Part shown: piece after piece, positions 5,481 to 44,498 of the stretch
Numbering within the stretch: the first letter of the stretch is position 1
Layout of the letters: every line of letters starts with the position of its first letter
Sequence record: OL770074.2
Strand: one strand, 5' to 3'
Origin: Escherichia phage vB_EcoM-RPN187
DNA: 64,000 nt
Program-made: the position numbers and the translations under genes
Notes under the pieces: model-generated
What the model saw: only the letters and a program-made list of their open reading frames with translations
Databases searched by the model: none
Told to the model about the DNA's origin: nothing

Positions 5481-5525
5481 GTTGTCTCCTCGTTATGAAG
5501 GTATTCTATCATCCGAAATCTAAAG

Positions 5526-5969: not shown

Positions 5970-5971
5970 AA

Positions 5972-6151: not shown

Positions 6152-6153
6152 TA

Positions 6154-6564
6154 TTATTCCTTAAAATGTGCTTTCAACATTTGATACAAAGACCATGCCT
6201 GGTCGTTATTTTCGATAGTAATCGTCATCACCGGAAATTCAGACAATTCGTCAAGTTCATCAGAATCTTGCTCTTCGGACGCTTGATATGGATTTTCAAC
6301 TTCATCAAAGAACTCTGCTTCATTCGTGGAGAGCCAGATAAAGTTTTCATCAAGGATATCACCACCTGTTGCGTATCCAACCGTGCCAGTAGATGTCACA
6401 ATTTTAGTAGGACGTCCGAGATGGTCAACATCTAAAATTTTAAAAGGTTCCATGCCAAGACGTCGTGCATAAATCCCATTATCAGTGTGGTCTTTAATAA
6501 ACTCTTCTTGGGCACGTTTATCTATAAATTGGTACCATGAGTTAACTCGGAATTTATTAGCCAT
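6154..6564 (-). CDS. hypothetical acidic protein
   Basis: ORF-track start is TTG; first ATG (MANKFRV) has SD AAGGAAA. Confidence 0.55.
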
Positions 6565-10383: not shown

Positions 10384-10691
10384 CGTAAAGTCCCTGCAAT
10401 TGGAATACTAACAATACGGCCTGTATCCAGGATTCGTTGATACAATTTTTGCGTCTCCGCATCTAGTTTAACGTGTTTCATTTCAAGCTTATTAAACCAG
10501 AACTTACGCGGAGTTTCGACCATTCTTAGAACTCCCATTTTTAAATCTGTTTTATACTGTGTTTTCAAAGTATCGAAAACTTTATCTGCAATATCCTTTC
10601 TAAAAAATACTGCAGGACGATGCTCATCAAGTGGAACCGGGACAGTAAATCCTTCCATATCTCGATAAACTATTGCATATACATAAACCAT
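10380..10691 (-). CDS. hypothetical protein (dda.1 position)
   Basis: 103 aa, ATG, overlaps dda start by 4 nt. Confidence 0.55.
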   Translation of the reverse strand: MVYVYAIVYRDMEGFTVPVPLDEHRPAVFFRKDIADKVFDTLKTQYKTDLKMGVLRMVETPRKFWFNKLEMKHVKLDAETQKLYQRILDTGRIVSIPIAGTLR

Positions 10692-10693
10692 AA

Positions 10694-11440
10694 TTAACCT
10701 TTAATCAGTTGGAATAATGATGCGCTAAGTGGTAAGCCGCGTTTCAATTTTAATTTACCAATGAAACCGATCTTTTCAAAACGTTGCAGACCTTGGATAA
10801 CTTTATCATATGTATCGAAAAGCGATTCAGCGTCAGTTAATTTAGTTTTAGTTTTCCAGTCAGAGCCTTTAAGAAGAACGTTGAGTTTAGTAAGTTCATG
10901 GCCTTCTGCTTGATGTGAGCCATTAATGCGTGCTTTCAAAGCAACAATTCTAAGTTTAGATTCGTTAGATAAGGGTTGATTTTTCATCATGTTCGCCATA
11001 TGCTTAACACGATTTTCACGTTTTGCTCGGATTTTTAAAATAGTGCCATAAACCTTTTTAATTTGGGCCCATTTCTTCTCGTCGAGATTAAGTTTCTCTA
11101 CTTTACGGGCAGAAGGATTAGCGATACGTCTTGCAATGGCATCACGTTTCTCAATAAGTTCTTCTAATGTTAAATCAGAACGAGCCGTGTTATATTTTTT
11201 CTTAACTGGGATAACATTACCTTTAATGTAGCCGATATCGTTATTAAAACGTTCTAAGGATAATTTCTCACCTTCAACAGAGTTATTGAAAGATTCACCT
11301 GAGTAAGCGCAGACCTTTTGATCAAGAATGTTTTTAAGGTAATTAAAATCTAAGTTAAAATCCTTAGAGCGTCTCTTTGCAGAAGCTCTAGTGTGGTCAA
11401 GACGACGATTGATTTTGTTAATTTTATTATTTGATAACAT
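10694..11440 (-). CDS. srd: Srd-like protein (assigned by synteny only)
   Basis: 248 aa basic protein between dda.1 and modA as in T4. Confidence 0.45.
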   Translation of the reverse strand: MLSNNKINKINRRLDHTRASAKRRSKDFNLDFNYLKNILDQKVCAYSGESFNNSVEGEKLSLERFNNDIGYIKGNVIPVKKKYNTARSDLTLEELIEKRDAIARRIANPSARKVEKLNLDEKKWAQIKKVYGTILKIRAKRENRVKHMANMMKNQPLSNESKLRIVALKARINGSHQAEGHELTKLNVLLKGSDWKTKTKLTDAESLFDTYDKVIQGLQRFEKIGFIGKLKLKRGLPLSASLFQLIKG

Positions 11441-11593
11441 AATATTTTCCTCTGTCTTACGGACGTTAAGGTCATTTAGCTGATAGGTCTATAATATCAT
11501 GCCCTCAGGTAGTGTACACTCTTTTTTCGTAAAATGCTTTAATTTTTTATGTGTTATAATGGTTCTGAGTTCCATCCGGTTATTCCAATCCAG

Positions 11594-12202
11594 TCAGTAA
11601 CTGACAATAGACATATTCCAGATTGTATAACTTCCATCTTGAATAATAGAATCTACACGCAGTGTAGTCCCTATAGGGAGCATAAATTCACATTCGTCAG
11701 ATATAAGTCTAGCATTAGACCGTCTTGTCGCTTCAGGGAAAGCTCCATTGAACTCACAAGATGGCGCAGCCAGAATCATGTTAAGCATATGTTCACGGAA
11801 GTTGAAAGCAAATGGTGCATCTTTGATGCAGAACATATTAAATGTTCCGTAAAAATTATACGAAGCAAAGTTACGTGCTACACCAAACACTGGACTAAAG
11901 CTCATTACTCTGTCAAATTTAATAATACTACCAATGCCTTTATCGTCGAGTGTGGCCATAGTTTTCTTAGAGATTCCACGATACATTGTCTCAGGAACTG
12001 AAGAAGACCAATTTCTACGAACAATTGCACTTAAATCTTGTTGGATGCTGTCTGGCTTGTTTTCCATACACTGCCATAGTACACTTTGTTCAATGTCGCT
12101 GAATTGCTCATCGATTTTGTACTGAAGCATATCTTGATAATCCGGGCATTGAGCACGTCGAACCATTTCTTCAATTTCACACTCGTTATACGGCATAAAC
12201 AT
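11594..12202 (-). CDS. modA: ADP-ribosyltransferase ModA-like (R-S-E class)
   Basis: 202 aa; YRG, SFS..ARNF and ECEF motifs; SD AGGAG. Confidence 0.75.
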   Translation of the reverse strand: MFMPYNECEIEEMVRRAQCPDYQDMLQYKIDEQFSDIEQSVLWQCMENKPDSIQQDLSAIVRRNWSSSVPETMYRGISKKTMATLDDKGIGSIIKFDRVMSFSPVFGVARNFASYNFYGTFNMFCIKDAPFAFNFREHMLNMILAAPSCEFNGAFPEATRRSNARLISDECEFMLPIGTTLRVDSIIQDGSYTIWNMSIVSY

Positions 12203-14703: not shown

Positions 14704-15225
14704 TCAGTAACCATTATCTTGGCGTTCAAAGTTGTGTTGGTTTTTCAAGTAGTAAAGTTTAAAGATTTCTTCAGCCGTAAGACCCAGACCTTGGAACATA
14801 TTCAGAACAAAGTGCAGAATATCAATCATCTCGAATTTAATTTCAAGCTGGTCTTCAGGAGACAGTTCATCGATACGACGATTTCGATATTCAACATGTT
14901 GAGCTTTCCACGGCTTCCATACAGAGCTAGCGGCTTTTTCACCATTGCTCATACCACCAAGTGAAGTCAGCAGTTCACGGAATTCATCATCAATATAATC
15001 TTTCTGATTACGCAGCCAATCAACAACATCACCAGCAGTGGCCAATTCATCAGGATGTTTGTTATGTTCAGGCTTGTCATTTGCCAGACGAACCTGTAAA
15101 GATTTCTGCATATCAAGCATTACCTGCAGAGGGTCTTTATCTTCGTGAATCAGAGCATTAAAATAAGCTTCTTCTGCTTTATCAACACCAGAAATAAGTT
15201 GTGAACATTCGTTAAAGTGTGCCAT
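14704..15225 (-). CDS. 56: dCTP pyrophosphatase gp56 (MazG-like)
   Basis: 173 aa from ATG (MAHFNE) with SD AAAGGAAAA; T4 gp56 171 aa; ORF-track start is TTG. Confidence 0.8.
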   Translation of the reverse strand: MAHFNECSQLISGVDKAEEAYFNALIHEDKDPLQVMLDMQKSLQVRLANDKPEHNKHPDELATAGDVVDWLRNQKDYIDDEFRELLTSLGGMSNGEKAASSVWKPWKAQHVEYRNRRIDELSPEDQLEIKFEMIDILHFVLNMFQGLGLTAEEIFKLYYLKNQHNFERQDNGY

Positions 15226-15315
15226 TATTTTTCCTTTCAATTCAGTATAAGAGAAGTTAATTCTAACATTAATTTTATAAAGCGTAATAAATAATAAGGT
15301 AACTAAGGAGATATT

Positions 15316-15513
15316 ATGTTTAAACTTCCATCGTTAATCAACGCTATTAAAGGCAATAAAAAGAAAACTGCTATCGCTGCAATAGTTGTAGGTGGCATTA
15401 TTTCATGGAACTTCGGGATTGCACCATTGTTAGTTGCCCATGGTGTTATGGTTCCTTCTGTTCCATTGGATACTGTAGTTGATTTAGCCTTTGCTATTAT
15501 AGGGCTTGTCTAA
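15316..15513 (+). CDS. hypothetical small hydrophobic/membrane protein, plus strand
   Basis: 65 aa, strong SD AAGGAG 6 nt before ATG; convergent with gp61, stop codons overlap. Confidence 0.55.
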   Translation: MFKLPSLINAIKGNKKKTAIAAIVVGGIISWNFGIAPLLVAHGVMVPSVPLDTVVDLAFAIIGLV

Positions 15514-16532
15514 ATCTTAGAATAATGAGATAATCTCATTTTAGCATGCAACCCACTTGAAATATTCTGTTTCATATATTCTAAAATTTCTTGTGGTGTT
15601 GCATTTTCTTTCATTACCATATCATTCACATCCTTTGATCTCCATGGAGCTCGGTCCCAGAACATGACACGTTCGCCTGCATCAACTAATCGCTTCATGC
15701 GAGCTATAGTATCCGGATGCCTAGGTTCATTATCCATTACCCATACCCGACGTTCTTTAAATGGTACCACATCTAAATCTATTGAGCCGCCTGTAATAGC
15801 GATTGCGTTGGGTATGAATAAACTATCAATAGGGCCTTCCATTACCCAGACGTCTCCTTCCTTAACACGTTCAGCACCATAAATTTTTGTTGCAGACTCA
15901 AACGCTTTAATAGTGATATATTTCTGAGGAGCATCTTTACGAAGTGCACGTCCTTGGAATGACTCAGCCTTCCCATCTTTATTAAAAATAGGAATCACTA
16001 AACGTGGTTCGGGAATCTCTTTCTTATACGTACCAGGTTGAATCTTGTTGACCAATTTGGGCCATTCTAATGTGAACCATAATCTGTTCCATGATTCTTT
16101 AGGAATGCATCGAGACTTAACATATTTCACAATAGGATGCTCTTCAGGCAGCTTGTCCAGACGAGAACAAGACGGCAAAGAATTTATAGTCTTTTTCTCT
16201 GGTTCTGGTTTATGTTCAGGAACCTTTTCAATCTTTGGTTCCATTCTAGCTTTTTCTTTACGAACTTCCATTAGATATTCGCGATAAAGCTCTTCATCAT
16301 ACTCTTTTAAGTATCCGGAAATTGTATTGTGGTATTGGCAGTTATAGCAATGTACATTACCAGGAGTACCACCATAATACCATCCGCGAGCTTTCATTGC
16401 ATCTGTCTGGGAGTCGCCACAAACTGGACACCGAAACGTTAATTTAAATGTGCTTGAATTATTGATTTGTCTAAAACGAGGGAGGTGAGAAAACGCACGA
16501 TAAGCAAATTCATTATCTATCCATTCAGCCAT
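15510..16532 (-). CDS. 61: DNA primase gp61
   Basis: 340 aa; zinc-ribbon CPVCGD...CYNC; T4 gp61 342 aa; SD GGAG. Confidence 0.9.
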   Translation of the reverse strand: MAEWIDNEFAYRAFSHLPRFRQINNSSTFKLTFRCPVCGDSQTDAMKARGWYYGGTPGNVHCYNCQYHNTISGYLKEYDEELYREYLMEVRKEKARMEPKIEKVPEHKPEPEKKTINSLPSCSRLDKLPEEHPIVKYVKSRCIPKESWNRLWFTLEWPKLVNKIQPGTYKKEIPEPRLVIPIFNKDGKAESFQGRALRKDAPQKYITIKAFESATKIYGAERVKEGDVWVMEGPIDSLFIPNAIAITGGSIDLDVVPFKERRVWVMDNEPRHPDTIARMKRLVDAGERVMFWDRAPWRSKDVNDMVMKENATPQEILEYMKQNISSGLHAKMRLSHYSKI

Positions 16533-18266: not shown

Positions 18267-18515
18267 TTATTCTTTTTCGCGAATAATAATTACTTGTTGA
18301 GGCTGCTGGGCAGATTTCTTTTCGGCAACGATAGACCAAATTAAAGTTCCAATCCAACCAACCATCGTCCAGTTAAAGAGTAAAGACACAAAGAAGATTG
18401 CTGTTGTGCTTTTTGTGCCACGAATAAGTGCGATTACCCAAGGCAACATGTAAATGATGATTGAACCAATACCTGCGATTAAAACCGCTACTGAACTAGC
18501 TACGAATAATTCCAT
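18267..18515 (-). CDS. hypothetical membrane protein (2 TM)
   Basis: 82 aa hydrophobic, ATG, SD GGAAA. Confidence 0.55.
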   Translation of the reverse strand: MELFVASSVAVLIAGIGSIIIYMLPWVIALIRGTKSTTAIFFVSLLFNWTMVGWIGTLIWSIVAEKKSAQQPQQVIIIREKE

Positions 18516-18543
18516 GTTAATTTCCTCTTGATTTGTTATGTTT

Positions 18544-18573
18544 ATAATATCTTATTTTAACTTTGGTGTAAAC
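18544..18573 (-). promoter_or_regulatory. early promoter: -35 GTTTAC, 18 nt, -10 TATTAT
   Basis: minus-strand read upstream of 18267..18515. Confidence 0.5.
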
Positions 18574-18576
18574 CAA

Positions 18577-18945
18577 TTAGTTAAATTTGTTTAAACGTTC
18601 AATACACTGGACGTAGTTATTTGCAATTTGTTTCTGGGTGGGCTCTTTACCAGTTGTTTCAACATAACGAATGAATGCGATTTCAGTAGCCTGTAGACAA
18701 TGTTCTTTAACACGTTGTTCTTTTGACAATGCTACAGTATCAGAGTCACGATAACGTTGAGCATAGGCATCAGCTTGAATCATTCGATTACCTACAGTAA
18801 CAGGGTCTTCCACTTCAACTTTAGGTTGGTCATACTGTTTAACATTCGGATTGTAAATCAGTTGGCCAACGTTATTAGGGATAAAGCCATGGGCACCACA
18901 TCCGGTTAATCCAAATACCATTGCTAAAGCGATTAATTTTTTCAT
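18577..18945 (-). CDS. putative lipoprotein
   Basis: 122 aa; signal peptide with lipobox LTGC. Confidence 0.6.
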   Translation of the reverse strand: MKKLIALAMVFGLTGCGAHGFIPNNVGQLIYNPNVKQYDQPKVEVEDPVTVGNRMIQADAYAQRYRDSDTVALSKEQRVKEHCLQATEIAFIRYVETTGKEPTQKQIANNYVQCIERLNKFN

Positions 18946-21830: not shown

Positions 21831-22995
21831 CGAAATCTTCCATTTCGTCAAGGTCATTTTCTATATCTGCTGCAGACGGAGCATCAGAAGTTTTAACCGG
21901 AACTTTAGTTGTTGCTTTGCAATTAATAAGGTCGTTAACAGCGTCATCAACTTCTTTAATAGAAGAGATAGCACCTAGTTTATATTTAGTTTCAATTGCA
22001 TCTCGGAAAGGTTTGTGTTTAAACAAAGGTCCCCAGAATTCTACACAATCAGTAGCTTTAGCACGCCATGATTTTTCTTCACGAATCATTTCGCCAGTTT
22101 CTTCGTCAAGGAATTCACGAGCATACCACCCGGCTTTAGGCTTAACTACAAAACCAATTTCAGTTGCCATTTCCAACAAGCCACTGAATGGGTCGATACC
22201 ACCATCAAAATTAACCGTGATTGGGAAAGTAGATTTTTCTTTAACGGTGCGAGATTTTTCTGCTTTCAGTGTGAAATCGTATCCGGTCAATTCTGTACCT
22301 TCTTTAACCTGACGTTTAGAGATAAAGAATACGGTGTTAGCAGAGTAAAGAATACCTGTACCACCGCCCATAATCTCTTTAGGATACAATCCGCCGATTT
22401 CCATTGCTGTATGGTTGATTGCAACACACGGAATATCTTTAATAGTCAGATACGGAGTCACAATGCGGAATAGAGATTTAAGTGCCTTAGCACGAGACAT
22501 ATCACCTACGACTTTCTCGTTCAATGCATCTTCAGTTTCTTTCTTAGATGCAGTATTACCGATTGAATCGATAAAGATAATAACTTTATCACCGCGTTCA
22601 ATAGCGTCAAGCTGATTAGTCATATCAACTTTAAGCTGTTCGACAGATTGAATCGGAGTATGAACTACACGGTCTAAATCAACACCCATTGAACGAAAAT
22701 AAGATTCCGAAGCACCAAATTCTGAATCATAGAACAAACAAATTGCATCTTTATATTTCTTCATATATGCTGCAACCATGGTCAGACCAAACAACGTTTT
22801 AAAGTGTTTAGAAGGAGCAGCAAAAATAGTTAAGCCTGATTGCAACCCGGCATTCAGTGCACCACCTAATGCAATATTCAACATCGGAATACGAGTAGGG
22901 ACTTCATCGCGATTATTAAACAACTTAGACTTAGTCAAGTCTGCAGTCATTTTAGAAGTAGAAGCTTTAATCAGACGAGATTTTAAATCAGACAT
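21823..22995 (-). CDS. uvsX: UvsX recombinase (RecA-like)
   Basis: 390 aa; N-terminus MSDLKSRLIKASTSK matches recalled T4 UvsX. Confidence 0.9.
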   Translation of the reverse strand: MSDLKSRLIKASTSKMTADLTKSKLFNNRDEVPTRIPMLNIALGGALNAGLQSGLTIFAAPSKHFKTLFGLTMVAAYMKKYKDAICLFYDSEFGASESYFRSMGVDLDRVVHTPIQSVEQLKVDMTNQLDAIERGDKVIIFIDSIGNTASKKETEDALNEKVVGDMSRAKALKSLFRIVTPYLTIKDIPCVAINHTAMEIGGLYPKEIMGGGTGILYSANTVFFISKRQVKEGTELTGYDFTLKAEKSRTVKEKSTFPITVNFDGGIDPFSGLLEMATEIGFVVKPKAGWYAREFLDEETGEMIREEKSWRAKATDCVEFWGPLFKHKPFRDAIETKYKLGAISSIKEVDDAVNDLINCKATTKVPVKTSDAPSAADIENDLDEMEDFDE

Positions 22996-23094
22996 TGTAT
23001 TTTTCCATAGGCATCATTATATTTTACTCATGTTTAAAAGATAAGACGATTATATACTAAGGGTTATACAGCATTTAAAACTTTAAACAGGCTC

Positions 23095-23643
23095 TTAACG
23101 AGCCCATTTGATAATTTCTGTAATCAAATTATTACGTTCGCTTGCATTAAATCCTATAACTTTGTTAGCACTATCATGATTAAGTAATTGATACGTTTGG
23201 ATTTTGTTATGAATTGCAAACTCTTCAAAATATGAAATGACTGTATTAAAACCGAATGAAGACAAAGTAATAAGGTCGTCTTCAAAACTTTCAGTCATTT
23301 CGTTACGTGTTAAAATAATTGTGAACACATCATGGTTTTGGCAAAGACGAACATAATCCTGTTCATAAACGTCAAGAACCGAGTCCACATCTTGTCGAAT
23401 ACGTCCATAAACCCAGTTACTAATATATCCACGGTCTAACAGATAAATCTTAGTAGGGTCTAAATAATTCAACATCGTTTCGAAACAGCCAACTTCATTT
23501 CGAGACTTAACATCAAAACGTCCATCAACTGTTCGTTTAGGGAAATCAATCTTTACATATCTTTCACTAATTTCCATTATGTCATTAATGAAAGTTGTTT
23601 TACCAGCATTATCCGGGCCATCTACTAAAATAATTTTAGCCAT
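23095..23643 (-). CDS. thymidylate kinase-like P-loop nucleotide kinase
   Basis: 182 aa; N-terminal ILVDGPDNAGKTT P-loop and LLDRGYIS (TMK DRY-like) motif; SD GAGGAA. Confidence 0.55.
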   Translation of the reverse strand: MAKIILVDGPDNAGKTTFINDIMEISERYVKIDFPKRTVDGRFDVKSRNEVGCFETMLNYLDPTKIYLLDRGYISNWVYGRIRQDVDSVLDVYEQDYVRLCQNHDVFTIILTRNEMTESFEDDLITLSSFGFNTVISYFEEFAIHNKIQTYQLLNHDSANKVIGFNASERNNLITEIIKWAR

Positions 23644-23644
23644 T

Positions 23645-24544
23645 TTATTCCTCGATTACGACATCTTCATATTTAGGTATATTATACGGCGAAGAAATTA
23701 AAGCATTAAAGTAGATGAACTCGCCAAGACCTGGATGGAATACTTCTTCAGGATTTTCGAAGTATTGAATCTTCGGACGTCCTTTAAGAATTTGATAGTA
23801 CTCAGTTTTAGTTGGTTTAAAAATTCGAATCAGCGCTTCTTCAGGATACTTATTTCTGTCGAAGCTATTATTTGGATCGGTTATATAAAGCGGTTGACCT
23901 AATTGAATTGCACATTCAACCACTTGTTCAAAACGATAACACGGGTCACTAATTCGAAATGGATGAAAAATACCATCTAGATGAATAGGAGCCAAATCAC
24001 CTACAAGACGCTGCATGATGGAAGGACGTATAACTTTCTGGGTTACGATAATCTTATTACCATCTGCACCTGCGTTAACCAGCACTTCTTTTTGACGTTC
24101 ATTCAACACAGTAGTTTGAAGTGAACGATTAACCGACAACATGTCGGTTTTTAAGAATTCGTCAATGTAAAAACGTGGTTTATTAGGGTCTGCAGTGATA
24201 TTGAAATTGAATTCTACATCAAAAGCGCCGTCATATCCAGTGATATCTGTGATTAGAAAATCACAATCATAATAAGCAATTAATGAATCAACCACAAATT
24301 CATTTTCAGACCAGAAATATTTACGAGTGTTATACGCGTTATCTTTATACCATAATGGAACAAACTTAAATTCTGGGAAAAGACGTTCGCATTCTTTAAT
24401 ATCAGATGCATTACGTGGATATGTAATAACATCACCTGGATTAGCACGGTGCAAATGAAGTTGGAAGTTGCCATCCTTAAGGATAGCATACTGTCCAGTT
24501 TCATAAGACCGCATACTCAAGATAGGTACGCGGAAAATAGCCAT
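23645..24544 (-). CDS. hypothetical protein at the T4 beta-glucosyltransferase locus
   Basis: 299 aa, ATG overlapping gp42 stop (TAATG); no motif recognised. Confidence 0.5.
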   Translation of the reverse strand: MAIFRVPILSMRSYETGQYAILKDGNFQLHLHRANPGDVITYPRNASDIKECERLFPEFKFVPLWYKDNAYNTRKYFWSENEFVVDSLIAYYDCDFLITDITGYDGAFDVEFNFNITADPNKPRFYIDEFLKTDMLSVNRSLQTTVLNERQKEVLVNAGADGNKIIVTQKVIRPSIMQRLVGDLAPIHLDGIFHPFRISDPCYRFEQVVECAIQLGQPLYITDPNNSFDRNKYPEEALIRIFKPTKTEYYQILKGRPKIQYFENPEEVFHPGLGEFIYFNALISSPYNIPKYEDVVIEE

Positions 24545-25260
24545 TAGTCAAGAAATCCTTTAACATAATCAAAATCACGTTCAAACACATGGGCACTTAC
24601 CATGGTATGAGTATAATCACCAACTTCTACACCACATTCGTTAGCGATATAATGAAGTAATTTTCCTTGGAGATAAAAATCCAACTGCATAACAACAGCA
24701 CAGTTCTGAGAACGCATATGACAGTGGGTATAAAGCTTACCATCACGAATATAATAAGTCACTGAGTCGGTACATGGATATTCAAGTGTTTCGTCTGAAT
24801 CAAGCAAAGCCTGATCAGAACTTTCTAGAATTTGGAACACAACTCTTCGAGAGTTAGGTTTTTCTTTAAGTTCTTTTAGAAGAGTTGGTAACTGGGCCGC
24901 AATGCGAGGACCATAGAAAGTGTTGAAGTTCGCAGGCAAAGCATCTGATTTTGGTTTAGAAATAAATTTAGCGACGTTAGGATATGCCTTAAATGCTTCT
25001 TCTGCATCAGTACCACCAGAAATCATAAATTTCCAGAAATCTTCAGCATATTCATAAGAGATGCGATTAATACGTGGGTCGGTCATTTTGAATGATGAAG
25101 GGGTATCAACAACTACTGTCATAGACCCAATTTCATTACAACGTCCAATACGAGAATCAGTTACGAATTCCGGGTTTTCTAAAATTTCACGATTGACTGC
25201 TTTAAATGCGGATTGAAAATCTGCGGCTTTAATATATTTCATTGTGTTATGTTTTCCCAT
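24544..25260 (-). CDS. 42: dCMP hydroxymethylase gp42 (thymidylate-synthase fold)
   Basis: 238 aa; CTDSVTYYIRD...MRSQN resembles recalled T4 gp42 active-site region; SD GAGGT. Confidence 0.7.
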   Translation of the reverse strand: MGKHNTMKYIKAADFQSAFKAVNREILENPEFVTDSRIGRCNEIGSMTVVVDTPSSFKMTDPRINRISYEYAEDFWKFMISGGTDAEEAFKAYPNVAKFISKPKSDALPANFNTFYGPRIAAQLPTLLKELKEKPNSRRVVFQILESSDQALLDSDETLEYPCTDSVTYYIRDGKLYTHCHMRSQNCAVVMQLDFYLQGKLLHYIANECGVEVGDYTHTMVSAHVFERDFDYVKGFLD

Positions 25261-25278
25261 GTTTACCTCAATACAGTT

Positions 25279-25302
25279 ATTATATACTCAATTCATAAAG
25301 CT
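25279..25302 (-). promoter_or_regulatory. possible middle-type promoter (MotA-box-like AGCTTTA 11 nt upstream of -10 TATAAT) before gene 42
   Basis: box deviates from TGCTT consensus at first position. Confidence 0.3.
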
Positions 25303-25393
25303 TATTTGAATTTCTTAGCGATGTTGATATAACGTAGAGCTTCGGCATCGATACTTCCAAGGACGCTATGAAGGAACGCGTCGACATAGTATT

Positions 25394-25543
25394 CTAGTTG
25401 AACAGGTTCTCTTTAATCACTTTAGCCGCTTTAGTTTCAAACAGGCCCATAAGGGCCTTTTTAAGAATTTGTTCGTTGTTGTTAATTTTAATAGTCAAAA
25501 TCTCTTCGTTAAGTTGGTGATTAAAAGTTTTTCTAGAAATCAT
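25394..25543 (-). CDS. possible small ORF (49 aa) coupled to upstream gene by ATGA overlap
   Basis: own translation MISRKTFNHQL...; contains a GGCCC/GGGCC hairpin, so may be non-coding. Confidence 0.25.
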   Translation of the reverse strand: MISRKTFNHQLNEEILTIKINNNEQILKKALMGLFETKAAKVIKENLFN

Positions 25544-26709
25544 TCTGGGTACCTCAAAGCGTCATCAGAGTTAGTTATATCAATAATAGATATAGAGTTT
25601 TCCGATAACCCATTTTTAGATAACTGACGTTTATAATATCTTTCACAATATGTACACGTCGTCCCGCAGATTTCATTAGCACAATCGAAATCTGGATGTT
25701 TGAACCACCTTTTTTCTAAAAAGCCATCTAACAAAGAGGTTTCAATATTTACCGTATGTGAAAACTCAGTCTCATTTTCAAGAGTGAAAATGGTCTCTAA
25801 AGGCTTCCACAATTCCAACAAATTACCTTCAAATTTTTCGGAAGCATAAGCTTCAAGAACTTTCAAAATGTAGTCTGTGCTACCTGTACGTCCTGAAACT
25901 TTGAATTGAGTGATACCAATATCATTATAAAGTTTCAAATCTTGAGGACGAACAAAACGAGTTCTCAACCAGTTAAATGGGTCTGTATCACGAGCTTTAA
26001 TACAGTGTTGCATTGGATATCCATTTAAGGATTTGGCATCATCTACTGTAACGTCGGTGCTATGGAAAATATAGCAAGAGTCACGATAACTACAATGTGT
26101 TGTATACCCTTTACCAGCATTAGAACAGAACTCATTTACAAGAACTTCAAATATTATATTGTTCTTATTGCAAAACTCTGCTGCACGCTTCAGGAAAGAA
26201 ACTGAACGGTTCTTATGAATTCCACAACAGACCTTTTTGATATTATACTGGTCATGCAAGTATTTGATTTGAGTTACAGCATCGACATGTAGAATTGTTG
26301 AAACTTCAATCTCAATGTCTTTATTGACTTCACGAACAATTTCCATAACAACAGGGTTAGCGATAGTAATACGCCATACGCCTATTGACCAAAGATACTG
26401 AACATAATCCTGAATAGCTTTCTTCTTCCACTCAACTAGTTCTCTTTTTGAACCAGGATTTATCGTGTTGAGTGTATAGTTAAAGCAAATACCTAATTCG
26501 TTACAACGTTTAACGTAATCTTCTAACATCTTTTTGTCAACGTCAGGAAGCCTAAAATCAGGTCTGGCTGCTACAAAAGCCATTTCTCTTGTAGAGCCGT
26601 ATACTTCGTTTATCAAGCTATTAGGATAAGTTTTATTGAGCTCTACGATTTTATCAAGAAGAGCTAAATCAAAATTCGTTCCGATTTTAAAGGTATTCAT
26701 TTTTTGCAT
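25540..26709 (-). CDS. hypothetical protein with weak resemblance to peptidase U32 (PrtC/RlhA/UbiU-type) family
   Basis: 389 aa; Cys-rich EFCSNAGKGYTTHCS and FKVSGRTGS reminiscent of U32 signature/LKIEGR motif; assignment tentative. Confidence 0.45.
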   Translation of the reverse strand: MQKMNTFKIGTNFDLALLDKIVELNKTYPNSLINEVYGSTREMAFVAARPDFRLPDVDKKMLEDYVKRCNELGICFNYTLNTINPGSKRELVEWKKKAIQDYVQYLWSIGVWRITIANPVVMEIVREVNKDIEIEVSTILHVDAVTQIKYLHDQYNIKKVCCGIHKNRSVSFLKRAAEFCNKNNIIFEVLVNEFCSNAGKGYTTHCSYRDSCYIFHSTDVTVDDAKSLNGYPMQHCIKARDTDPFNWLRTRFVRPQDLKLYNDIGITQFKVSGRTGSTDYILKVLEAYASEKFEGNLLELWKPLETIFTLENETEFSHTVNIETSLLDGFLEKRWFKHPDFDCANEICGTTCTYCERYYKRQLSKNGLSENSISIIDITNSDDALRYPE

Positions 26710-26756
26710 CTCGCCGTTAATTGATGCGATGGTTTTTGCAGGTCTTACTTAAATTA

Positions 26757-27158
26757 TTATAGATTCGGTTTATATGATTTAAATGTTTCGAATTCGCCTT
26801 TATTCATAAGAGCTTTGAATTCGTCAGGACGCATAGCTTTGTCGTCGATAATCCAATCATATACTGGTTTATGTGTTAGCAAATTATGGTACTTCAATCC
26901 AATGTTTGCCAAGTTCTGAATCAGACTTGGGAGAATGTCAATTGCTATACGACCCGGACCGACTGACTTCATACCGCGAGCAGTGTAAAGCGTTATGGTA
27001 TGCCCTGCATCATACAGGGCATTAATGGCAGACACCATTTCGACGTCTGGTTTGAAGTTCACGTAATCACGATTGTTATTCCACTCTGTTATACAATCAT
27101 CGACATCAAAACAAAGATTAAGCATGTTTTCTACACGGTGCATTAGATTCGTTCCCAT
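26757..27158 (-). CDS. small HAD-superfamily-like phosphatase (start uncertain)
   Basis: LCFDVDDCIT resembles HAD motif I; alternative starts at M6 (TAATG coupling) or M12. Confidence 0.45.
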   Translation of the reverse strand: MGTNLMHRVENMLNLCFDVDDCITEWNNNRDYVNFKPDVEMVSAINALYDAGHTITLYTARGMKSVGPGRIAIDILPSLIQNLANIGLKYHNLLTHKPVYDWIIDDKAMRPDEFKALMNKGEFETFKSYKPNL

Positions 27159-28828
27159 TGATGAGTGATATCGCCACCGATTGGACGATAGGAAACACCA
27201 GTTTCTTTATCAGTTAGTACCCATTTACCAGGATTTTTTGTAATCAGAGTAGCCGTTACAGGTTCTGCTACGTCATAACTAATAGAGCCGTCCTGAAGTA
27301 CACGGCCCATGTTACGTAATTGCTTAGTCAGAAGTTCCATACCTTTATAATATGCGGCTACCGCTTTAAGTGGATTATTCTTGAAATAACCACCTAATGC
27401 AATCCAGATAATTGCCACTGCCAAATGATGATACTCGTTAAACGAACTCATCTTTCCATATTTGTAAACTAATGGATTGATGTTAATAGTCACATTACAA
27501 GTTGTTTCATCAATAGTAAACTGTCCCCAGGTCGGATTAGCGTTGAATTCATCATACCCTGAAACAGCATAAAGCACTTTAGCTTCGTCATACAATTTTG
27601 GCCCGTAAATCTTGGTTTCACCAAAATATCCACGAGGGTCAATAAACTTGACTTCACCATTATCAGTAATCATAGTATTACTGAAGTTCGGGTCACCATG
27701 AATAACAGAGTACTGTCCCTGAGAACGGTTATGATAACGAATAAGGTGTTCTAAAGCTTGTCTCAACATTGGCTTCAGACGTCCAATCTTAGTGTAGTTC
27801 ACATGTGTGATTTTACCAAATGAATCAATCAATGGTTGAATACTTTCACAACGATCAATAACTTTCGTATAGAATTCTTTAGTGAAATCACGACGAACAG
27901 TTTCAGGACTTACAAAATAAGTGTCTGTGCTGAATTTCAGTGCATCTAAAATTGCATCAACAATTTGTGGACGAGCAAGACTTGATTTGGATTTAATATA
28001 TTCAAATGCCGGCTTACCTTTAATGCGTTCCATTTCAAAGTTATTTTCATTAACAGAAACTAACTGAGGAACTGAATCTGATTTCACTTTAAGATACCAT
28101 GAAATCTCATCTTTCTGAAGAGCTCGGCCCTGTTCGGTTAATGCGAATTTAGTTACAGTTTCTTCACCAATTTCAACTGCGTTAAAACTACGATTAAGTT
28201 CACGAACTTCATGAGCTTTTTCAAGTTTAGGCATATCACCTAAATCAATTAGATTCATAAGCTCTGATTTATTGAATGCGCTGCCGTAAAGGAATTCTAC
28301 GAAATCACGTCCTTTGCAGTATTCATGAATTTCCTCATCAGTAGAACCCATATAGAATTCCCAGTCTTTGAACTGATAAATTCCTACAACATTACCACCT
28401 GTTGAACCTACGTTAGTGATATTTTCACCGTCGAAATTATATCGACATTCGTCGCCCTTAACATAGATTGCGTTAACATTCCAAGACCACGAACCAAAAT
28501 CAGGAATAATATCACACCAGTTAACAATTACATTATGGCCGTCTAAATCTTTGTGCAATTTAGCAAGAGCATAAGCAGAACCATATGCTTCATCAACTGT
28601 ACGAATAGTCACATTGAACCCTTCTTGCTCACAATAAGCTCGAACAGTTTCAGCAAATTTTGAATGAACTACTACAATAATTTCATCTGCGCCAAGGTCA
28701 GAATAAATTGTATACAAATTGCTCAGAATAGTGTCTTGTTTATAGTTAACAAGCACCTTAGGAATATGATGCGTTATTGGATACAAACGAGTTGCCAGTC
28801 CAGCACCAAGAATAACAGCTTTTTTCAT
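27143..28828 (-). CDS. bifunctional sugar-phosphate nucleotidyltransferase (N-terminal) / APH-like kinase (C-terminal)
   Basis: 561 aa; N-terminal ILGAGLATRL (GxGxR NTase motif); C-terminal HGDPNFSNTMI and FIDPRGYFG (Brenner/APH kinase motifs); SD GAGGA. Confidence 0.7.
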   Translation of the reverse strand: MKKAVILGAGLATRLYPITHHIPKVLVNYKQDTILSNLYTIYSDLGADEIIVVVHSKFAETVRAYCEQEGFNVTIRTVDEAYGSAYALAKLHKDLDGHNVIVNWCDIIPDFGSWSWNVNAIYVKGDECRYNFDGENITNVGSTGGNVVGIYQFKDWEFYMGSTDEEIHEYCKGRDFVEFLYGSAFNKSELMNLIDLGDMPKLEKAHEVRELNRSFNAVEIGEETVTKFALTEQGRALQKDEISWYLKVKSDSVPQLVSVNENNFEMERIKGKPAFEYIKSKSSLARPQIVDAILDALKFSTDTYFVSPETVRRDFTKEFYTKVIDRCESIQPLIDSFGKITHVNYTKIGRLKPMLRQALEHLIRYHNRSQGQYSVIHGDPNFSNTMITDNGEVKFIDPRGYFGETKIYGPKLYDEAKVLYAVSGYDEFNANPTWGQFTIDETTCNVTININPLVYKYGKMSSFNEYHHLAVAIIWIALGGYFKNNPLKAVAAYYKGMELLTKQLRNMGRVLQDGSISYDVAEPVTATLITKNPGKWVLTDKETGVSYRPIGGDITHQWERI

Positions 28829-28869
28829 GTTGTGGTCCTCATTGGTAAGTAGGAGTATTGTACACTATT

Positions 28870-29013
28870 CTAGTTAAAGCATTCATACTTTGCTTGTAGT
28901 CCAATCATAATCCATCCGATTATAAGAGTCGGAATCATTACTGGAGCCGTTAAGCTCCAGTAGATAGTCATGACAAGCATCAATAGTAAAAGTCCTATTG
29001 TTATTGCTTTCAT
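28870..29013 (-). CDS. possible small two-TM membrane protein (47 aa), coupled to the SIS gene stop
   Basis: own translation MKAITIGLLLLMLVMTIYW...; ATG overlaps upstream TGA. Confidence 0.4.
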   Translation of the reverse strand: MKAITIGLLLLMLVMTIYWSLTAPVMIPTLIIGWIMIGLQAKYECFN

Positions 29014-29645
29014 TGTTCGCCTCGTAACATGGCACCTAGTGCACCGCCAGGGTGGAACTTAAGGAAGTCATTAGAGGTAAATCCACGTTCAGACGAAAGG
29101 TTGATAGCAAACGTATCGATAAGCGCTAACAACAATGTAGTGGACATGGTCGGAGCCAGAGAATTCTCATCAACCTCTACTGCGATGCCTGTACAGAACG
29201 TATAATCAAAAAGAGCTTCGTATTCTTGTGGAATGTCCGGGTTACAATGCAACAGAATCTGTTTGACGTTCGGACGAATCATTTTAAGATGCTTAGCCAC
29301 GCCTATCATTTCTTCAGTTTTACCAGAACGACTAATATGAATCAACACATCATTAGGCGCAATGAATCCTGCATCACCGTGAGAATAATGTCCAGTGTTC
29401 AAGTACATACTCGGGATACCGAGTGAAGCAAATGTCTCAGAAGCTTTAGTTGCAATATTAGCATTCTTACCAACACCTGTAATAATTACTCGGCTTTCAT
29501 AATTACTAAGTCCAGGACGTCGAAGAGTTTCTAGAATAGCATTATAACGAGCAGGGTTTTGACTAATTACTTTGGCCATAGCGGCCAAAGAAGAAGCTTG
29601 TTTTATGATTGCGTCAATAGCGATAGTAATAGGAGTAGTTTTCAT
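29010..29645 (-). CDS. SIS-domain sugar-phosphate isomerase (KdsD/GutQ-like arabinose-5-phosphate isomerase)
   Basis: 211 aa; ITGVGKNANIA and ISRSGKTEE SIS motifs; SD GAGAG. Confidence 0.7.
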   Translation of the reverse strand: MKTTPITIAIDAIIKQASSLAAMAKVISQNPARYNAILETLRRPGLSNYESRVIITGVGKNANIATKASETFASLGIPSMYLNTGHYSHGDAGFIAPNDVLIHISRSGKTEEMIGVAKHLKMIRPNVKQILLHCNPDIPQEYEALFDYTFCTGIAVEVDENSLAPTMSTTLLLALIDTFAINLSSERGFTSNDFLKFHPGGALGAMLRGEQ

Positions 29646-29685
29646 ATTTCTCTCATTTAATTAGTTTGCCGTCCATGTCATTATA

Positions 29686-32397
29686 TCAAAAATCGAACAT
29701 ATCGAACAGAGATGCTTTCTTCTCGTAATCGAGTTTCGCTGCTGATGTGAATCCTTCAAGTGGTTTAATAAATGTCTTCTCAAGGAGAACAGTGTAGTCC
29801 ATCCAATGAAGTACGTCGTCTTTAATTAAATCTGTGATTTCAGTACCAGAAGGCCATGCGATACATTTATCACCGAATGGGTTTCCTTCACGTAAAGGCA
29901 GAACATATACTTTTTCACCTTCTACAACTTGTGGTGCATCGATATTACCTTTGATAGCACGGTTATACGTCAGAATTCCACGAATATGGAATGGGCATTT
30001 AGGACCAGGGAATCCACCTACATCATATTTAGCAATGTTATTCGCAGAAGATACTGACGCGATGCTAATATAATTCAATTGACGGAATTCTTTTTCAAAC
30101 TCTTTAAAATATTCTTGTAATGATTCTTCGCCTTCCTGAAGCATACGACGAATACATTCTTTAAGAGCTTTCTGTACTGCTTTAGGAGTCGAAGATTTCT
30201 GAGTCTCTAGACCCATGATTTTGAGTTTAGGCTCAGCGTATCTGGTTCCTTCCATATCCCACACGTTTAATGCATAACGTTTCTTACCAGTCCAGAATCC
30301 ACCAATACCTTTAGAACCGAGTGGAGGCCCAGCGATAGCTTCTCGGTCCATGAACATTAAGTGTTGTTTATTGTTCATGTATTCACACATTTCACGGAAA
30401 CCTCTATCAATAGCTGGTTCCATACGTTCACGTGCAAACTTATCTAAGAAGTCTACCCAATGGTTGGTATCACGGAATTTAGATTCACCAACCTTATCGA
30501 TAATTTTATCAGCAGATACGTAAATAGAGTCTGTATCACCATAAAGAACGAAAGCTTCACCTTCTGTGCCACAAACTTCATTCAGATATTCATTAACTTT
30601 ACGTTCAATCCACTGTAAAGCCATTTGCCCGAATGTTGTGATTGCAGTAGCATTACGCAAATCGTAATAACGGAACCAAACGTTGCCAAGTGCACCATAA
30701 AGTGAGTTGATAAGCAATTTACGGTTAATTTGGGCAGTCATACCTGCAACTTCAGTACGTTGAGCTCTAAACAACATTTCATTAAGAGATTTAGCAGACA
30801 ACTTTTTAATCTTTTCTTTAATCTCATCACTGAAGTCGAAACGATAATCAACATCTAATGGTTCGTCAACAGAAAGATTAGGATTATGCAATGCCTCTTT
30901 AATTATTTCACCATTACGTTGAGCTGCAAGCATGTAACCTTTATGTTCTTTACGTTGATTAAAGACCTTAGTGATTTCAGTTGGAACAACACCGTCACGG
31001 TCTTTATAATACATCATGCCGTTAGGAGAACAACTGTACACATCAGAAGGACGTTCAGCAACAGCGTTAATATAATCATGTAATGGAGCTACTTTAAACG
31101 TTCCTGCTATTGTTTCTGGGCTAATATTCACTTGGCGAATAATACTTGGATACAGAGATGTAAGGTCGAAACTCATTACATATTTGTATCGATTTGGAAT
31201 AGGTTCCTTAACAAAAGCGCCTGGATAAGGTTGAACCGGGTGAGAACGACCTTGTGGAATCACCTTGTTCTGCTCTTTAAGGCTATTAAAAATAATAGCA
31301 TCCCATGTTTTAATTGGACTAAACACAGATTGAATCTGTATCTTAGCATAATAACCCATATCCAAACTCAAGTTGATGAACTGACGCTTAGCATCAATTT
31401 GCAATACACGATACACGTCGATAATGTTATAAGAAATATATCGTTGGTGATTGCTTTCACGAAGCTTAGAAATAGGGCCGTCATATTTCAGTTTACCAAC
31501 GTTCAATTCAAATTCTGAAATGTAATCCAGAGAATATGACGGTTGATTGGTAAAAGAGAATTTTTTGTAAAGGTCAATGTAATCAAGAACAGAGATACCG
31601 AACAATGTAATGATTTCACGAGAACCATACATGTTTTCGATAACTTTAACACGAGTTTTACGATGTGGTGATAAACGTTTCGCAGTAGATTCGCCAAAAA
31701 TATTCTTTATTCGGTTATACACATACGGAATATCAAATGACTCAACGTTCCATCCAGTCAAAACGACAGGAGTTTTCTGTTGCCAGAAGTTGAGATATTC
31801 CATCAACAATTCTTTTTCGTTATCGAACGGCATATAAATGATTTTATCGATAATTTCGGATGGAACTTCATCACCACCTTGTTCTTGAAGCTTAGCCGCA
31901 ATTTCGATAGACCATTCTTCTACATTACCATATGGAGAATTCAAAAGGTCAAATACGTAGAACCTGTCGTCAATTGAGTCATAATGAGTGATAGCATCAA
32001 TCGGGTGTTTTGCTTGTGACGGCTCAGGGAACCCATCCGGAGATGTTACTTCGATGTCGAAGTTAGCCACACGAATTTTTGTATGGTCGTATTTGATTTC
32101 ATAGTTATAAGTGTCAGACAAATACGCCAATTTGAAATCGTCCATGCCAAGTGCTTCAAGTCCGATATCTTCCATGCGTTTAATCCATTGGGAGGCATCA
32201 CGCATATTGGCGAACAACTTACGAGTACACGGCTTACCGTAGATATCGAAATATTTCGTAGCCTGACTTTCTGGACAATGAGCAAACAGTGATGGTTTAT
32301 ATTCTACTTCACGAGTACGTTCACGGCCGTTAGAATCGATGTAACGTTCAAAAATTGAATCACCAATCTGTTCAACCGTTAAGTAAAATTCTTTCAT
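29686..32397 (-). CDS. 43: DNA polymerase gp43 (family B, with 3'-5' exonuclease)
   Basis: 903 aa; exo and pol motifs (FDIE, YGDTDS, SLYGALG); T4 gp43 898 aa. Confidence 0.92.
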   Translation of the reverse strand: MKEFYLTVEQIGDSIFERYIDSNGRERTREVEYKPSLFAHCPESQATKYFDIYGKPCTRKLFANMRDASQWIKRMEDIGLEALGMDDFKLAYLSDTYNYEIKYDHTKIRVANFDIEVTSPDGFPEPSQAKHPIDAITHYDSIDDRFYVFDLLNSPYGNVEEWSIEIAAKLQEQGGDEVPSEIIDKIIYMPFDNEKELLMEYLNFWQQKTPVVLTGWNVESFDIPYVYNRIKNIFGESTAKRLSPHRKTRVKVIENMYGSREIITLFGISVLDYIDLYKKFSFTNQPSYSLDYISEFELNVGKLKYDGPISKLRESNHQRYISYNIIDVYRVLQIDAKRQFINLSLDMGYYAKIQIQSVFSPIKTWDAIIFNSLKEQNKVIPQGRSHPVQPYPGAFVKEPIPNRYKYVMSFDLTSLYPSIIRQVNISPETIAGTFKVAPLHDYINAVAERPSDVYSCSPNGMMYYKDRDGVVPTEITKVFNQRKEHKGYMLAAQRNGEIIKEALHNPNLSVDEPLDVDYRFDFSDEIKEKIKKLSAKSLNEMLFRAQRTEVAGMTAQINRKLLINSLYGALGNVWFRYYDLRNATAITTFGQMALQWIERKVNEYLNEVCGTEGEAFVLYGDTDSIYVSADKIIDKVGESKFRDTNHWVDFLDKFARERMEPAIDRGFREMCEYMNNKQHLMFMDREAIAGPPLGSKGIGGFWTGKKRYALNVWDMEGTRYAEPKLKIMGLETQKSSTPKAVQKALKECIRRMLQEGEESLQEYFKEFEKEFRQLNYISIASVSSANNIAKYDVGGFPGPKCPFHIRGILTYNRAIKGNIDAPQVVEGEKVYVLPLREGNPFGDKCIAWPSGTEITDLIKDDVLHWMDYTVLLEKTFIKPLEGFTSAAKLDYEKKASLFDMFDF

Positions 32398-43921: not shown

Positions 43922-44035
43922 TTAATTGATTATCCAAGCATTGATAAGCACTAAACTATATTGTGAATAAAATTCTGGACCAAAATTAAAAATCATATCA
44001 TTTATAGTATCCATAATATAATTCAATTTAATCAT
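43922..44035 (-). CDS. possible small ORF (37 aa)
   Basis: ATG overlapping nrdG stop; longer track ORF overlaps nrdG by about 120 nt. Confidence 0.2.
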   Translation of the reverse strand: MIKLNYIMDTINDMIFNFGPEFYSQYSLVLINAWIIN

Positions 44036-44498
44036 GTTTCCACACCCCATCGGTATTTGACCAAAGTCGCTGATTATCTGATCCTCGCCACAGTTTTTTG
44101 GTCGGAAGATTTTTCTCATACTTCCCATCAATAATAACATCAACATATTTAAGCATTTCTAGTTGTTTAATATCTTCAAACTTATATCCTGTCCACAACC
44201 AAATGCTTTTATTGGGATAAAGATTTTTTACTGTTTGAACGATGCAATGAACAACATCTCGGTTATCAGGATAGAGAGGGTCTCCTCCAGTTATAGTTAA
44301 TCCTTCTATATAATCGTTATTCAAACATTCAATTAATTGCTCTAGTGTTTCACCCGTAAATGGAATACCATTTCTAGCGTTCCATGTTGATTTATTATAA
44401 CACCCCTCGCATTTATGCAAACAACCTGTAACGAAAAGAACGACCCTGCAACCAGGGCCATTCACAAAATCGCAAGGATAAAATCTATCATAATTCAT
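44028..44498 (-). CDS. nrdG: anaerobic ribonucleotide reductase activating protein NrdG (radical SAM)
   Basis: 156 aa; CDFVNGPGCRVVLFVTGCLHKCEGC motif; ATGA overlap with nrdD. Confidence 0.9.
   Translation of the reverse strand: MNYDRFYPCDFVNGPGCRVVLFVTGCLHKCEGCYNKSTWNARNGIPFTGETLEQLIECLNNDYIEGLTITGGDPLYPDNRDVVHCIVQTVKNLYPNKSIWLWTGYKFEDIKQLEMLKYVDVIIDGKYEKNLPTKKLWRGSDNQRLWSNTDGVWKHD

Follow-up and report, generated by a model that had tools for sequence, protein, structure and literature searches.

Between the DNA polymerase gene and the dCMP hydroxymethylase gene bacteriophage T4 carries only imm.1 and imm (gene order 43 - imm.1 - imm - 42 - b-gt). At the corresponding place Escherichia phage vB_EcoM-RPN187 has an island of six open reading frames (ORFs), all co-oriented on the minus strand. 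The stretch of DNA that we analysed, called here the window, comprises the first 64 kb (64,000 nucleotides; sequence record OL770074.2) of this RB69-like Mosigvirus genome, and the island lies at 25394..29645, between gp43 (29686..32397), which is its upstream flank, and a gene of the ThyA family. What does this island make, and what is the function of the U32-family protein that it encodes? The island itself holds nothing new, it belongs to the cytosine hypermodification system already known from phages RB69 and HY126, and the window is a further member. That the region is the sugar-activation half of that system we consider likely. Taken by itself, the specific proposal that the phage U32 protein (RB69 gp50) is an O2-independent, prephenate-dependent, Fe-S pyrimidine C5-hydroxylase of deoxypyrimidine nucleotides has, in our judgement, an even chance of being right; the idea is apparently unpublished.

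The proteins of the cluster are 97-100% identical to their RB69 and HY126 counterparts and the genes follow in the same order; the region is matched at an identity of at least 95% in about 150 phage records. The resemblance to RB69 suggested in an initial annotation of the window was borne out by this synteny comparison, but the product named there, arabinosyl-5-hydroxymethylcytosine (arabinosyl-hmC), was not, as the acceptor base is 5-hydroxycytosine (5hoC; PMC13326640). The modified base of RB69 was identified by nuclear magnetic resonance and mass spectrometry as 5-O-arabinosyl-5-hydroxycytosine, which has an ether link and is distinct from arabinosyl-hmC (Lee et al. 2026, PMC13326640). RB69 gp48, a ThyA homolog, makes 5-hydroxy-dCMP (5hodCMP) with flavin and O2, with incorporation of 18O2 (PMC13326640). 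The presence of arabinosyl-5hoC in DNA is demonstrated for RB69 and, as relayed by citation in the same paper, for HY126. Near-identity to these phages suggests that the DNA of the window phage contains it as well.

The ThyA-like gene beside the island (24544..25260, minus strand, 238 aa, separated from it by a gap of 133 nt) had been taken for gp42 dCMP hydroxymethylase. It is instead a flavin/O2-dependent 5-hydroxy-dCMP synthase: the protein, which matches Thymidylat_synt (E 2e-15), is 99.2% identical to RB69 gp48 and 98.7% identical to its HY126 counterpart, but only 24.8% identical to T4 gp42. In the alignment it reads EYPC, RSQN and QLD where T4 gp42 has DFMC, RSND and RND, and the signature of 5hodCMP synthases (E. 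coli D169 to N, N177 to D, L143 to E) is present. The enzyme would hydroxylate dCMP at C5 using flavin and O2, whereupon kinases would convert 5hodCMP to the triphosphate, to be incorporated by gp43. In near-identical phages 5hodCMP is phosphorylated by the gp1-type dNMP kinase.

The domain assignments that had been made for four island proteins (SIS, HAD-like, nucleotidyltransferase plus kinase, U32) agree with the Pfam and NCBIfam searches. The SIS protein (29010..29645, minus strand, 211 aa; RB69 gp55), 100% identical to HY126 and 99% to RB69, matches Pfam SIS (E 1.7e-10) and the NCBIfam models KpsF/GutQ (E 2e-32) and KdsD (E 1e-30). The published role of this protein is that of a D-arabinose-5-phosphate (A5P) isomerase, forming A5P from ribulose-5-phosphate (PMC13326640), and the same step is predicted for the window protein. 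The 561-aa protein (27143..28828, minus strand; RB69 ORF53_52c; 96.8% identical to HY126, 99.5% to RB69) contains an NTP_transferase domain at residues 3-99 (E 9e-10) and weak kinase-fold matches at 344-409. Thomas et al. 2018 (PMC6024577), who merged ORF053c and ORF052c into this single 561-aa gene, nominated ORF055c and ORF53_52c for UDP-arabinose synthesis. The HAD-like protein (26757..27158, minus strand, 133 aa; AfhF / RB69 gp51), 100% identical to HY126, matches the capsule biosynthesis phosphatase model EcbF/BcbF (NCBIfam TIGR01689, E 4e-13).

According to the results of He et al. 2026 as relayed in PMC13326640, AfhE of HY126 is a dual A5P 1-kinase and UDP-arabinose pyrophosphorylase, and arabinose-1,5-bisphosphate is the substrate of AfhF, a Mg-dependent phosphatase. 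The C-terminal kinase domain of the AfhE-type 561-aa protein would accordingly be expected to phosphorylate A5P to arabinose-1,5-bisphosphate, the HAD phosphatase would remove the 5-phosphate, and the N-terminal domain would convert the resulting arabinose-1-phosphate into UDP-arabinofuranose, with no free sugar in the route. Of the scheme drawn in the initial annotation the synthesis of an NDP-pentose for DNA glycosylation stands, whereas its passage through a free sugar is contradicted by the relayed HY126 biochemistry.

Two glycosyltransferases (GTs), predicted as such from structure, would place arabinose onto 5hoC in DNA. The first is encoded at 23645..24544 (minus strand, 299 aa; RB69 gp46:47, so assigned in PMC13326640 Table 1) and is 99% identical to RB69 and HY126. 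The second, the distal GT-B-like protein encoded at 2520..3620 (minus strand), gave no match in the Pfam search and is 98.9% identical to RB69 ORF003c, which occupies exactly the same coordinates in RB69 and was assigned as second arabinosyltransferase by Thomas 2018 (PMC6024577) and in PMC13326640. The identity to ORF003c supports the connection of this gene with the island that had been proposed. The pathway had been called complete; that description omitted the first GT and the thymidylate-kinase-like (Tmk-like) nucleotide kinase at 23095..23643 (minus strand, 182 aa; RB69 gp45, listed among the cluster genes in PMC13326640 Table 1), which has a weak dTMP-kinase match and is 97-98% identical to RB69 and HY126. 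Alpha- and beta-glucosyltransferase had been reported missing, and tblastn likewise gave no match to either at E ≤ 0.01 in the 64-kb window; both syntenic sites are without them, and the gp47-gp55 interval is shorter than 1 kb.

The U32 gene (25540..26709, minus strand, 389 aa) had been left outside the sugar scheme, and we agree that it does not belong there. In the GenBank record of HY126 it is annotated as hypothetical, and RB69 gp50 is mentioned only as a table row, with the label 'sugar or heterocycle reductase' (PMC13326640 Table 1). The sole Pfam domain in its product, a candidate Fe-S protein, is Peptidase_U32 (PF01136, E 6e-11), with the U32 TIM-barrel fold. Members of this family are Fe-S proteins needed for O2-independent, prephenate-dependent hydroxylations (PMC6747719, PMC10990095, PMC6599085, PMC5727448). 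UbiU/UbiV act in anaerobic ubiquinone synthesis (PMC6747719, PMC10990095), TrhP, the partner of the O2-dependent TrhO, forms 5-hydroxyuridine (ho5U34) in tRNA (PMC6599085), and RlhA forms 5-hydroxycytidine 2501 in 23S rRNA, for which a separate C-terminal Cys cluster is also required (PMC5727448). TrhP and RlhA thus put a hydroxyl on the C5 of a pyrimidine, which is the same chemistry as needed by the phage, whose known hydroxylase works only with O2.

The phage U32 proteins form a clade of their own, with about 490 clusters at the 50% identity level (E ≤ 1e-30). Three cysteines, C195, C206 and C236, do not vary among 122 members with identities as low as 22%, and at position 212 either Cys or His is found; K270, R274 and P255 are invariant, too. 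A C-terminal CX4CX3CX2C motif (C343/348/352/355) is kept in about 95% of the distant relatives and is invariant in the closer ones. The essential CX6C of RlhA, TrhP and UbiU (C169/C176 in RlhA) has its counterpart in C206/C212 in the alignments, and the phage 'FK(V/I)(S/T)GR' aligns with 'KIEGR' of the same three proteins. Judged from these residues, the phage protein resembles a U32 enzyme with two clusters, although its cysteines are not spaced in the canonical way. A PDB sequence search with the U32 protein gave no match at E ≤ 1. The C-terminal Cys motif (residues 343-355) includes CX3CX-aromatic-C, resembling the cluster motif of radical SAM enzymes; separate radical SAM/SPASM genes adjoin U32 in L001 and L012/L013.

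We also looked at the genomic surroundings of U32 relatives outside the Straboviridae. We compared 42 such loci from metagenomic contigs, IMG/VR contigs and bacterial assemblies, encoding U32 relatives with 43-58% identity, and identified partner genes by iterated profile searches and clustering. A gp46:47-like GT, often as the adjacent gene, was found near U32 in 28 of the 42 loci and a Tmk-like kinase in 29. Other partners were AfhE-like (17 loci), HAD (15) and SIS (9) genes and genes for dUTPase (9), DnaE-type polymerase (8) and dCMP deaminase (7). A ThyA-family gene was present in a single locus. In the other 41, within a view of at most 10 kb on each side, beyond which a distant ThyA-like gene could lie, U32 occurs with a GT, a kinase or a kinase-methyltransferase and no ThyA-like gene. 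U32 is thus tied to an enzyme using a hydroxyl (GT or methyltransferase) plus a nucleotide kinase, and at these loci it stands at the place that the ThyA-like hydroxylase holds in the Straboviridae, which is the pattern of non-orthologous displacement. From this context, i.e. from the missing ThyA-like gene in 41 of 42 loci and from the anaerobe assemblies described below, we infer a putative O2-independent hydroxylase function for U32.

The gene arrangements could be sorted into five architectures. In architecture A (kinase - GT - U32 - DnaE) there are no sugar-activation genes. Architecture B (GT - SIS - AfhE - (kinase) - HAD - U32) contains them, and architecture C (U32 - GT - AfhE - HAD - GT) is found in contigs of 190-295 kb. 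Architecture D reads Tmk - UDG - DnaE - dCMP deaminase - U32. In architecture E a gene for phage GP88, a guanylate-kinase::SAM-methyltransferase fusion and a 267-aa protein precede U32. Because the arabinose pathway is missing from A, D and E, U32 is not tied to the sugar. Architecture E is reminiscent of the synthesis of 5-methoxyuridine (mo5U) in tRNA, in which a U32-type hydroxylase is likewise followed by an O-methyltransferase, and in phages of anaerobes the block of GP88, kinase::methyltransferase and 267-aa protein may serve to introduce methoxy-pyrimidines into DNA. The conserved protein of about 267 aa is encoded just upstream of U32 in five loci (L052, L066, L069, L070 and L071, e.g. 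L071 5249..6052); it has no Pfam match, and its motifs 'APDTHVIQ..RLG' and 'FPYLSGxKIxNYWL' are reminiscent of HhH-GPD DNA glycosylases.

Two loci have peculiarities of their own. In L011 a TET-associated glycosyltransferase (TAGT, E 4e-8) gene directly follows U32 and a UDP-galactopyranose mutase gene is nearby (11098..12000 and 15073..16179), which by analogy suggests galactofuranosyl decoration of a hydroxypyrimidine made by U32. In Rhizobium phage RL38J1, where the hydroxylase is of the ThyA type, such decoration has reportedly been described. The single locus with a ThyA-family gene, L030, is a 230-kb non-Straboviridae contig in which the ThyA-like gene (5509..6360; product 24% identical to that of the window, profile E 2e-9) occurs together with U32 (10001..11083), two GTs and an AfhE-like gene; it represents a second independent lineage with both putative hydroxylases.

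A further, indirect line of evidence concerns the oxygen donor. DAHP synthase catalyses the committed step into the shikimate pathway; prephenate, the product of chorismate mutase, is the proposed oxygen donor of the U32 hydroxylases (PMC10990095, PMC6599085, PMC5727448). In six of the 42 loci a DAHP synthase gene is located within 3.3 kb of U32, and three of the six are fused to chorismate mutase. The fusions, DAHP synthase with a C-terminal type II chorismate mutase (CM_2 E 5e-20 and 8e-18), lie one gene upstream of U32 in L040 (8411..9433), L041 (9..971) and L042 (7302..8357). In L002 (11145..11891) and L028 (9384..10130) the gene beginning at the stop codon of U32 encodes a DAHP synthase catalytic domain (E 3e-70 and 7e-67 with NCBIfam, as compared to about 1e-17 for KDO8P synthase), and in L065 a further DAHP synthase gene is found 3.3 kb away. 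That the 248-aa neighbour in L002 could be a KDO8P synthase, which would have been a tie to A5P, was considered and rejected, since the NCBIfam DAHP synthase model scored 3e-70 and the KDO8P model 3e-17. The occurrence of these auxiliary shikimate-pathway genes, carried by uncultured phages, beside U32 in at least three lineages is hard to explain otherwise than by a link to prephenate.

The distribution of U32 among phages was surveyed by tblastn against 50,697 phage records. AfhE-like bifunctional genes were found in 376 records, 57 of them from Acinetobacter phages, and U32 in 221, all at an identity of at least 80%. The U32-bearing records come from phages that infect Enterobacterales and Shewanella, and their ten most frequent names, of which the tenth accounts for 3 records, do not include Acinetobacter. 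In the Acinetobacter johnsonii phage Acj61 the order is SIS - AfhE - arn.3 - HAD - ThyA-like - GT - kinase, and the gap between HAD and the ThyA-like gene is empty. The E. coli Dhakavirus JS10 also has the cluster without U32. These two clusters indicate that the pathway can do without U32, which is accessory to it. In the Straboviridae loci that contain it, no other protein of the cluster is as well conserved as U32 (82-89% identity); the ThyA-like protein reaches 73-82%, AfhE 41-72% and the kinase 37-72%. Acinetobacter species are strict aerobes, and the hosts of the phages with U32 can live with or without oxygen, as facultative anaerobes. The absence of U32 from Acinetobacter phages fits an anaerobic role.

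A scan of 100,044 species-representative genomes yielded eight U32 loci, all of them in assemblies of anaerobes and none in an aerobe. The eight assemblies were from Erysipelotrichales, Bacillota, Lachnospiraceae, Romboutsia (two), Tannerella, a subsurface BRC1 and the cultured isolate Phocaeicola faecalis. The window also encodes, at 44028..46312 on the minus strand, NrdG (156 aa, 80% identical to T4) and an adjacent 605-aa NrdD anaerobic ribonucleotide reductase; the window phage is, as predicted from these genes, equipped for dNTP synthesis without O2. NrdD homologs occur in 2,913 phage records, mostly of phages of facultative anaerobes. Among seven genomes of phages with the 5hoC cluster, U32 and nrdDG at the syntenic site occur together in the window phage, Pm5461 and CHI14, both are missing from JS10 and Acj61, Marfa and TG1 have U32 without nrdDG, and the reverse combination was found in none. 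This co-variation is imperfect and, with n=7, suggestive at best.

If the U32 protein is a C5-hydroxylase, it would, as an Fe-S, prephenate-dependent and O2-independent enzyme, make the same 5-hydroxypyrimidine nucleotide as the ThyA-like enzyme when O2 is lacking. Prephenate would donate the oxygen, the two Fe-S clusters would pass electrons, and modification of the DNA could continue under anoxia. The substrate might be dCMP or cytosine already in DNA; the constant nucleotide-kinase neighbours favour the mononucleotide.

It must be noted that a number of observations weigh against this proposal. The hydroxylase role of the phage protein is putative, and for no U32 member do PMC10990095 and PMC6599085 describe a direct hydroxylase activity reconstituted in vitro. 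The phage protein falls in no characterised U32 orthogroup of NCBIfam (the UbiU model scored 19 bits against a cut-off of 440), and its core cysteines are spaced CX10CX5CX23C instead of the canonical CX6CX15CX3/4C. Host assignments of metagenome-assembled genomes are fallible owing to binning errors, and the limited view around each locus was mentioned above. The absence of U32 from Acinetobacter phages may be a single ancestral event, JS10 infects E. coli and has no U32, and Marfa and TG1 have U32 without nrdDG. A literature search did not find U32, phage and hydroxycytosine or prephenate treated together, but He et al. 2026 and Mahler et al. 2025, which were beyond its reach, may address the gene. 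To these points can be added the published labels, which place the protein on the sugar side.

According to those labels the U32 protein would be a reductase or modifier of arabinose, UDP-arabinose or a heterocycle: besides the entry for RB69 gp50 quoted above, BASEL lists it as 'putative enzyme involved in UDP-arabinose biosynthesis'. The gene does sit between the phosphatase gene and the ThyA-like gene, and AfhE-like and SIS genes adjoin it in 17 of the 42 loci. We nevertheless think a sugar-side role unlikely. Acinetobacter phages and Dhakaviruses keep the cluster without U32, and DLP3, whose listed cluster contains no U32 gene, makes tri-arabinosylated 5hoC (PMC13326640). In 14 of the 42 loci U32 occurs with a GT, kinase or kinase::methyltransferase, and neither an AfhE-like nor a SIS gene is present; the nearby genes for DAHP synthase and chorismate mutase suggest a chemistry based on prephenate. 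We know of no U32 member acting on a sugar.

It is less probable still that the protein is an RNA hydroxylase which, like TrhP or RlhA, acts on phage or host tRNA or rRNA and came into the cluster by chance. The two best-studied U32 enzymes of nucleic acids do act on RNA, and the best E. coli match in hhalign was RlhA (E 2e-5). The affinity to RlhA was, however, not robust, as hmmsearch ranked TrhP first (15.9 vs 10.4 bits), and we dropped the idea of a specific kinship with RlhA. The 389-aa protein has PF01136 only, without the accessory domains of RlhA and TrhP, and the genes constantly found beside it in the 42 loci encode DNA-type GTs, dNMP kinases, dCMP deaminase, dUTPase and the replicative polymerase; genes of translation are not among them.

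The reading of the whole region from which the analysis started, a T4-like hydroxymethylase making hmC and an island making NDP-arabinose via free arabinose for arabinosyl-hmC, has become very improbable. It goes back to the detection of arabinose in RB69 DNA by Thomas et al. 2018, who proposed arabinosyl-hmC (PMC6024577), and the free sugar also persists in Table 1 of PMC13326640, in its description of the phosphatase and kinase reactions. Against it stand the ether link to 5-hydroxycytosine and the 18O2 incorporation by gp48, the near-identity of the window protein to gp48 with RSQN rather than the T4 RSND, and, for the free-sugar route, the direct phosphorylation of A5P by HY126 AfhE as relayed in PMC13326640. 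That U32 is a collagenase-like peptidase processing a phage or host protein, as the Pfam name, many GenBank annotations ('peptidase', 'putative protease') and the reports of PrtC and HP0169 as collagenases (PMC5727448) would have it, is hardly credible: the family has no defined catalytic residues of a peptidase, the positions that do not vary are eight metal ligands, the surrounding genes belong to nucleotide metabolism, and the family has been reinterpreted as Fe-S hydroxylases (PMC6747719, PMC10990095).

Some features of the island deserve mention apart from its chemistry. Its position between the gp42-like gene and gp43 was as described in the initial annotation, as were its coordinates, which span 4,252 bp rather than the 'about 4.4 kb' given there. 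The common orientation of the genes was confirmed, and the translational coupling described there holds at three junctions, with overlaps of 4, 16 and 4 nt, but not at the others, where gaps of 40-47 nt were found. The GC content of the island (0.34-0.42) is the same as that of the flanks, so that a recent acquisition, if there was one, left no sign in the composition profile, and a promoter/terminator scan of 22800..29900 gave nothing above shuffled expectation. Homologs of imm (64% to T4) and imm.1 (32%) are present at 18270..18939 on the minus strand, so that the genes which originally filled the space between 42 and 43 have moved rather than disappeared.

Two short ORFs complete the island. 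The hydrophobic 47-aa ORF (28870..29013, minus strand; RB69 ORF054c) overlaps the SIS stop by 4 nt and is kept in HY126 and RB69 (98-100%) and, at lower identity, in JS10 (55%) and further Straboviridae loci (50-68%). In T4 a stretch without annotation, located between gene 42 and imm, matches it with 60% over 30 aa, so that a small membrane protein may have been overlooked there. The 49-aa ORF (25394..25543, minus strand), overlapping the U32 stop by 4 nt, shows poor conservation and is detectable in only 4 of 16 Straboviridae loci; RB69 has a longer ORF049c at this place, and the 49-aa ORF is possibly not a real gene.

It is useful to compare the region with known systems. From the Afh system of RB69, HY126 and DLP3 (Thomas 2018, Mahler 2025, He 2026, Lee 2026) the window, as a member, differs in nothing material; the U32 gene is part of the RB69/HY126 version and not of the DLP3/Acj61 or Dhakavirus versions. 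With the glucosylation of hmC in T4 (gp42, alpha-gt, beta-gt, host UDP-glucose) it shares the logic of C5 modification of dCMP by a ThyA-family enzyme, incorporation, and transfer of sugar by GTs to a hydroxyl on DNA. In contrast to T4, the hydroxyl is directly on C5 instead of on a methylene, flavin and O2 replace folate, the position of E. coli D169 is Asn (Asp in T4), and the sugar donor is made by the phage, with no alpha-gt or beta-gt in the window.

The phage U32 protein shares with RlhA, TrhP and UbiU/V the PF01136 domain, the TIM-barrel, the Cys pair aligned to CX6C and the K-x-x-G-R motif, and with RlhA a second Cys cluster, in place of which UbiU/V have a second cluster-bearing subunit. 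It differs from them in its lack of orthology, its single domain of 360-390 aa, its other Cys spacing, its own C-terminal CX4CX3CX2C and in being encoded by phages; the putative substrate, a deoxypyrimidine nucleotide or DNA, would be without known precedent among U32 enzymes. The proposed pairing of an O2-dependent enzyme with a U32 protein for the same product has parallels in TrhO/TrhP and UbiIHF/UbiUV. The NrdAB/NrdDG pair of T-even phages, of which the window encodes NrdG and NrdD, similarly provides O2-requiring and O2-independent enzymes for one step of DNA precursor synthesis, although the chemistry is different and U32 co-varies with NrdDG only partially.

The value of the island lies in a correction, from arabinosyl-hmC to arabinosyl-5-hydroxycytosine, and the residual interest is in U32. 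If the proposed function is true, the phage protein would be the first member of its family to use DNA precursors as substrates. This would extend U32/prephenate hydroxylation from RNA and quinones to DNA precursors and would offer a small enzyme with a soluble substrate for study. In RB69-like phages, whose hosts are facultative anaerobes, 5-hydroxycytosine could then be formed in two ways, one with flavin and O2 and another with U32 and prephenate, whereas phages of anaerobes, in several hundred sequence clusters, would use U32 as the sole hydroxylase, and some of them would boost the supply of the oxygen donor by their own DAHP synthase-chorismate mutase. The hydroxyl made by U32 would be glycosylated by a GT or, where the kinase::methyltransferase fusion is present, O-methylated to give 5-methoxy-pyrimidine DNA. 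O-glycosyl- and methoxy-pyrimidine DNA not seen so far would thus be predicted in uncultured phages of Bacteroidota and Bacillota, for which a gene of the U32 clade beside a GT or methyltransferase plus a dNMP kinase could serve as a marker. Such a route would also explain how gut phages with an O2-requiring base hydroxylase can have fully modified, restriction-resistant DNA in the anoxic intestine.

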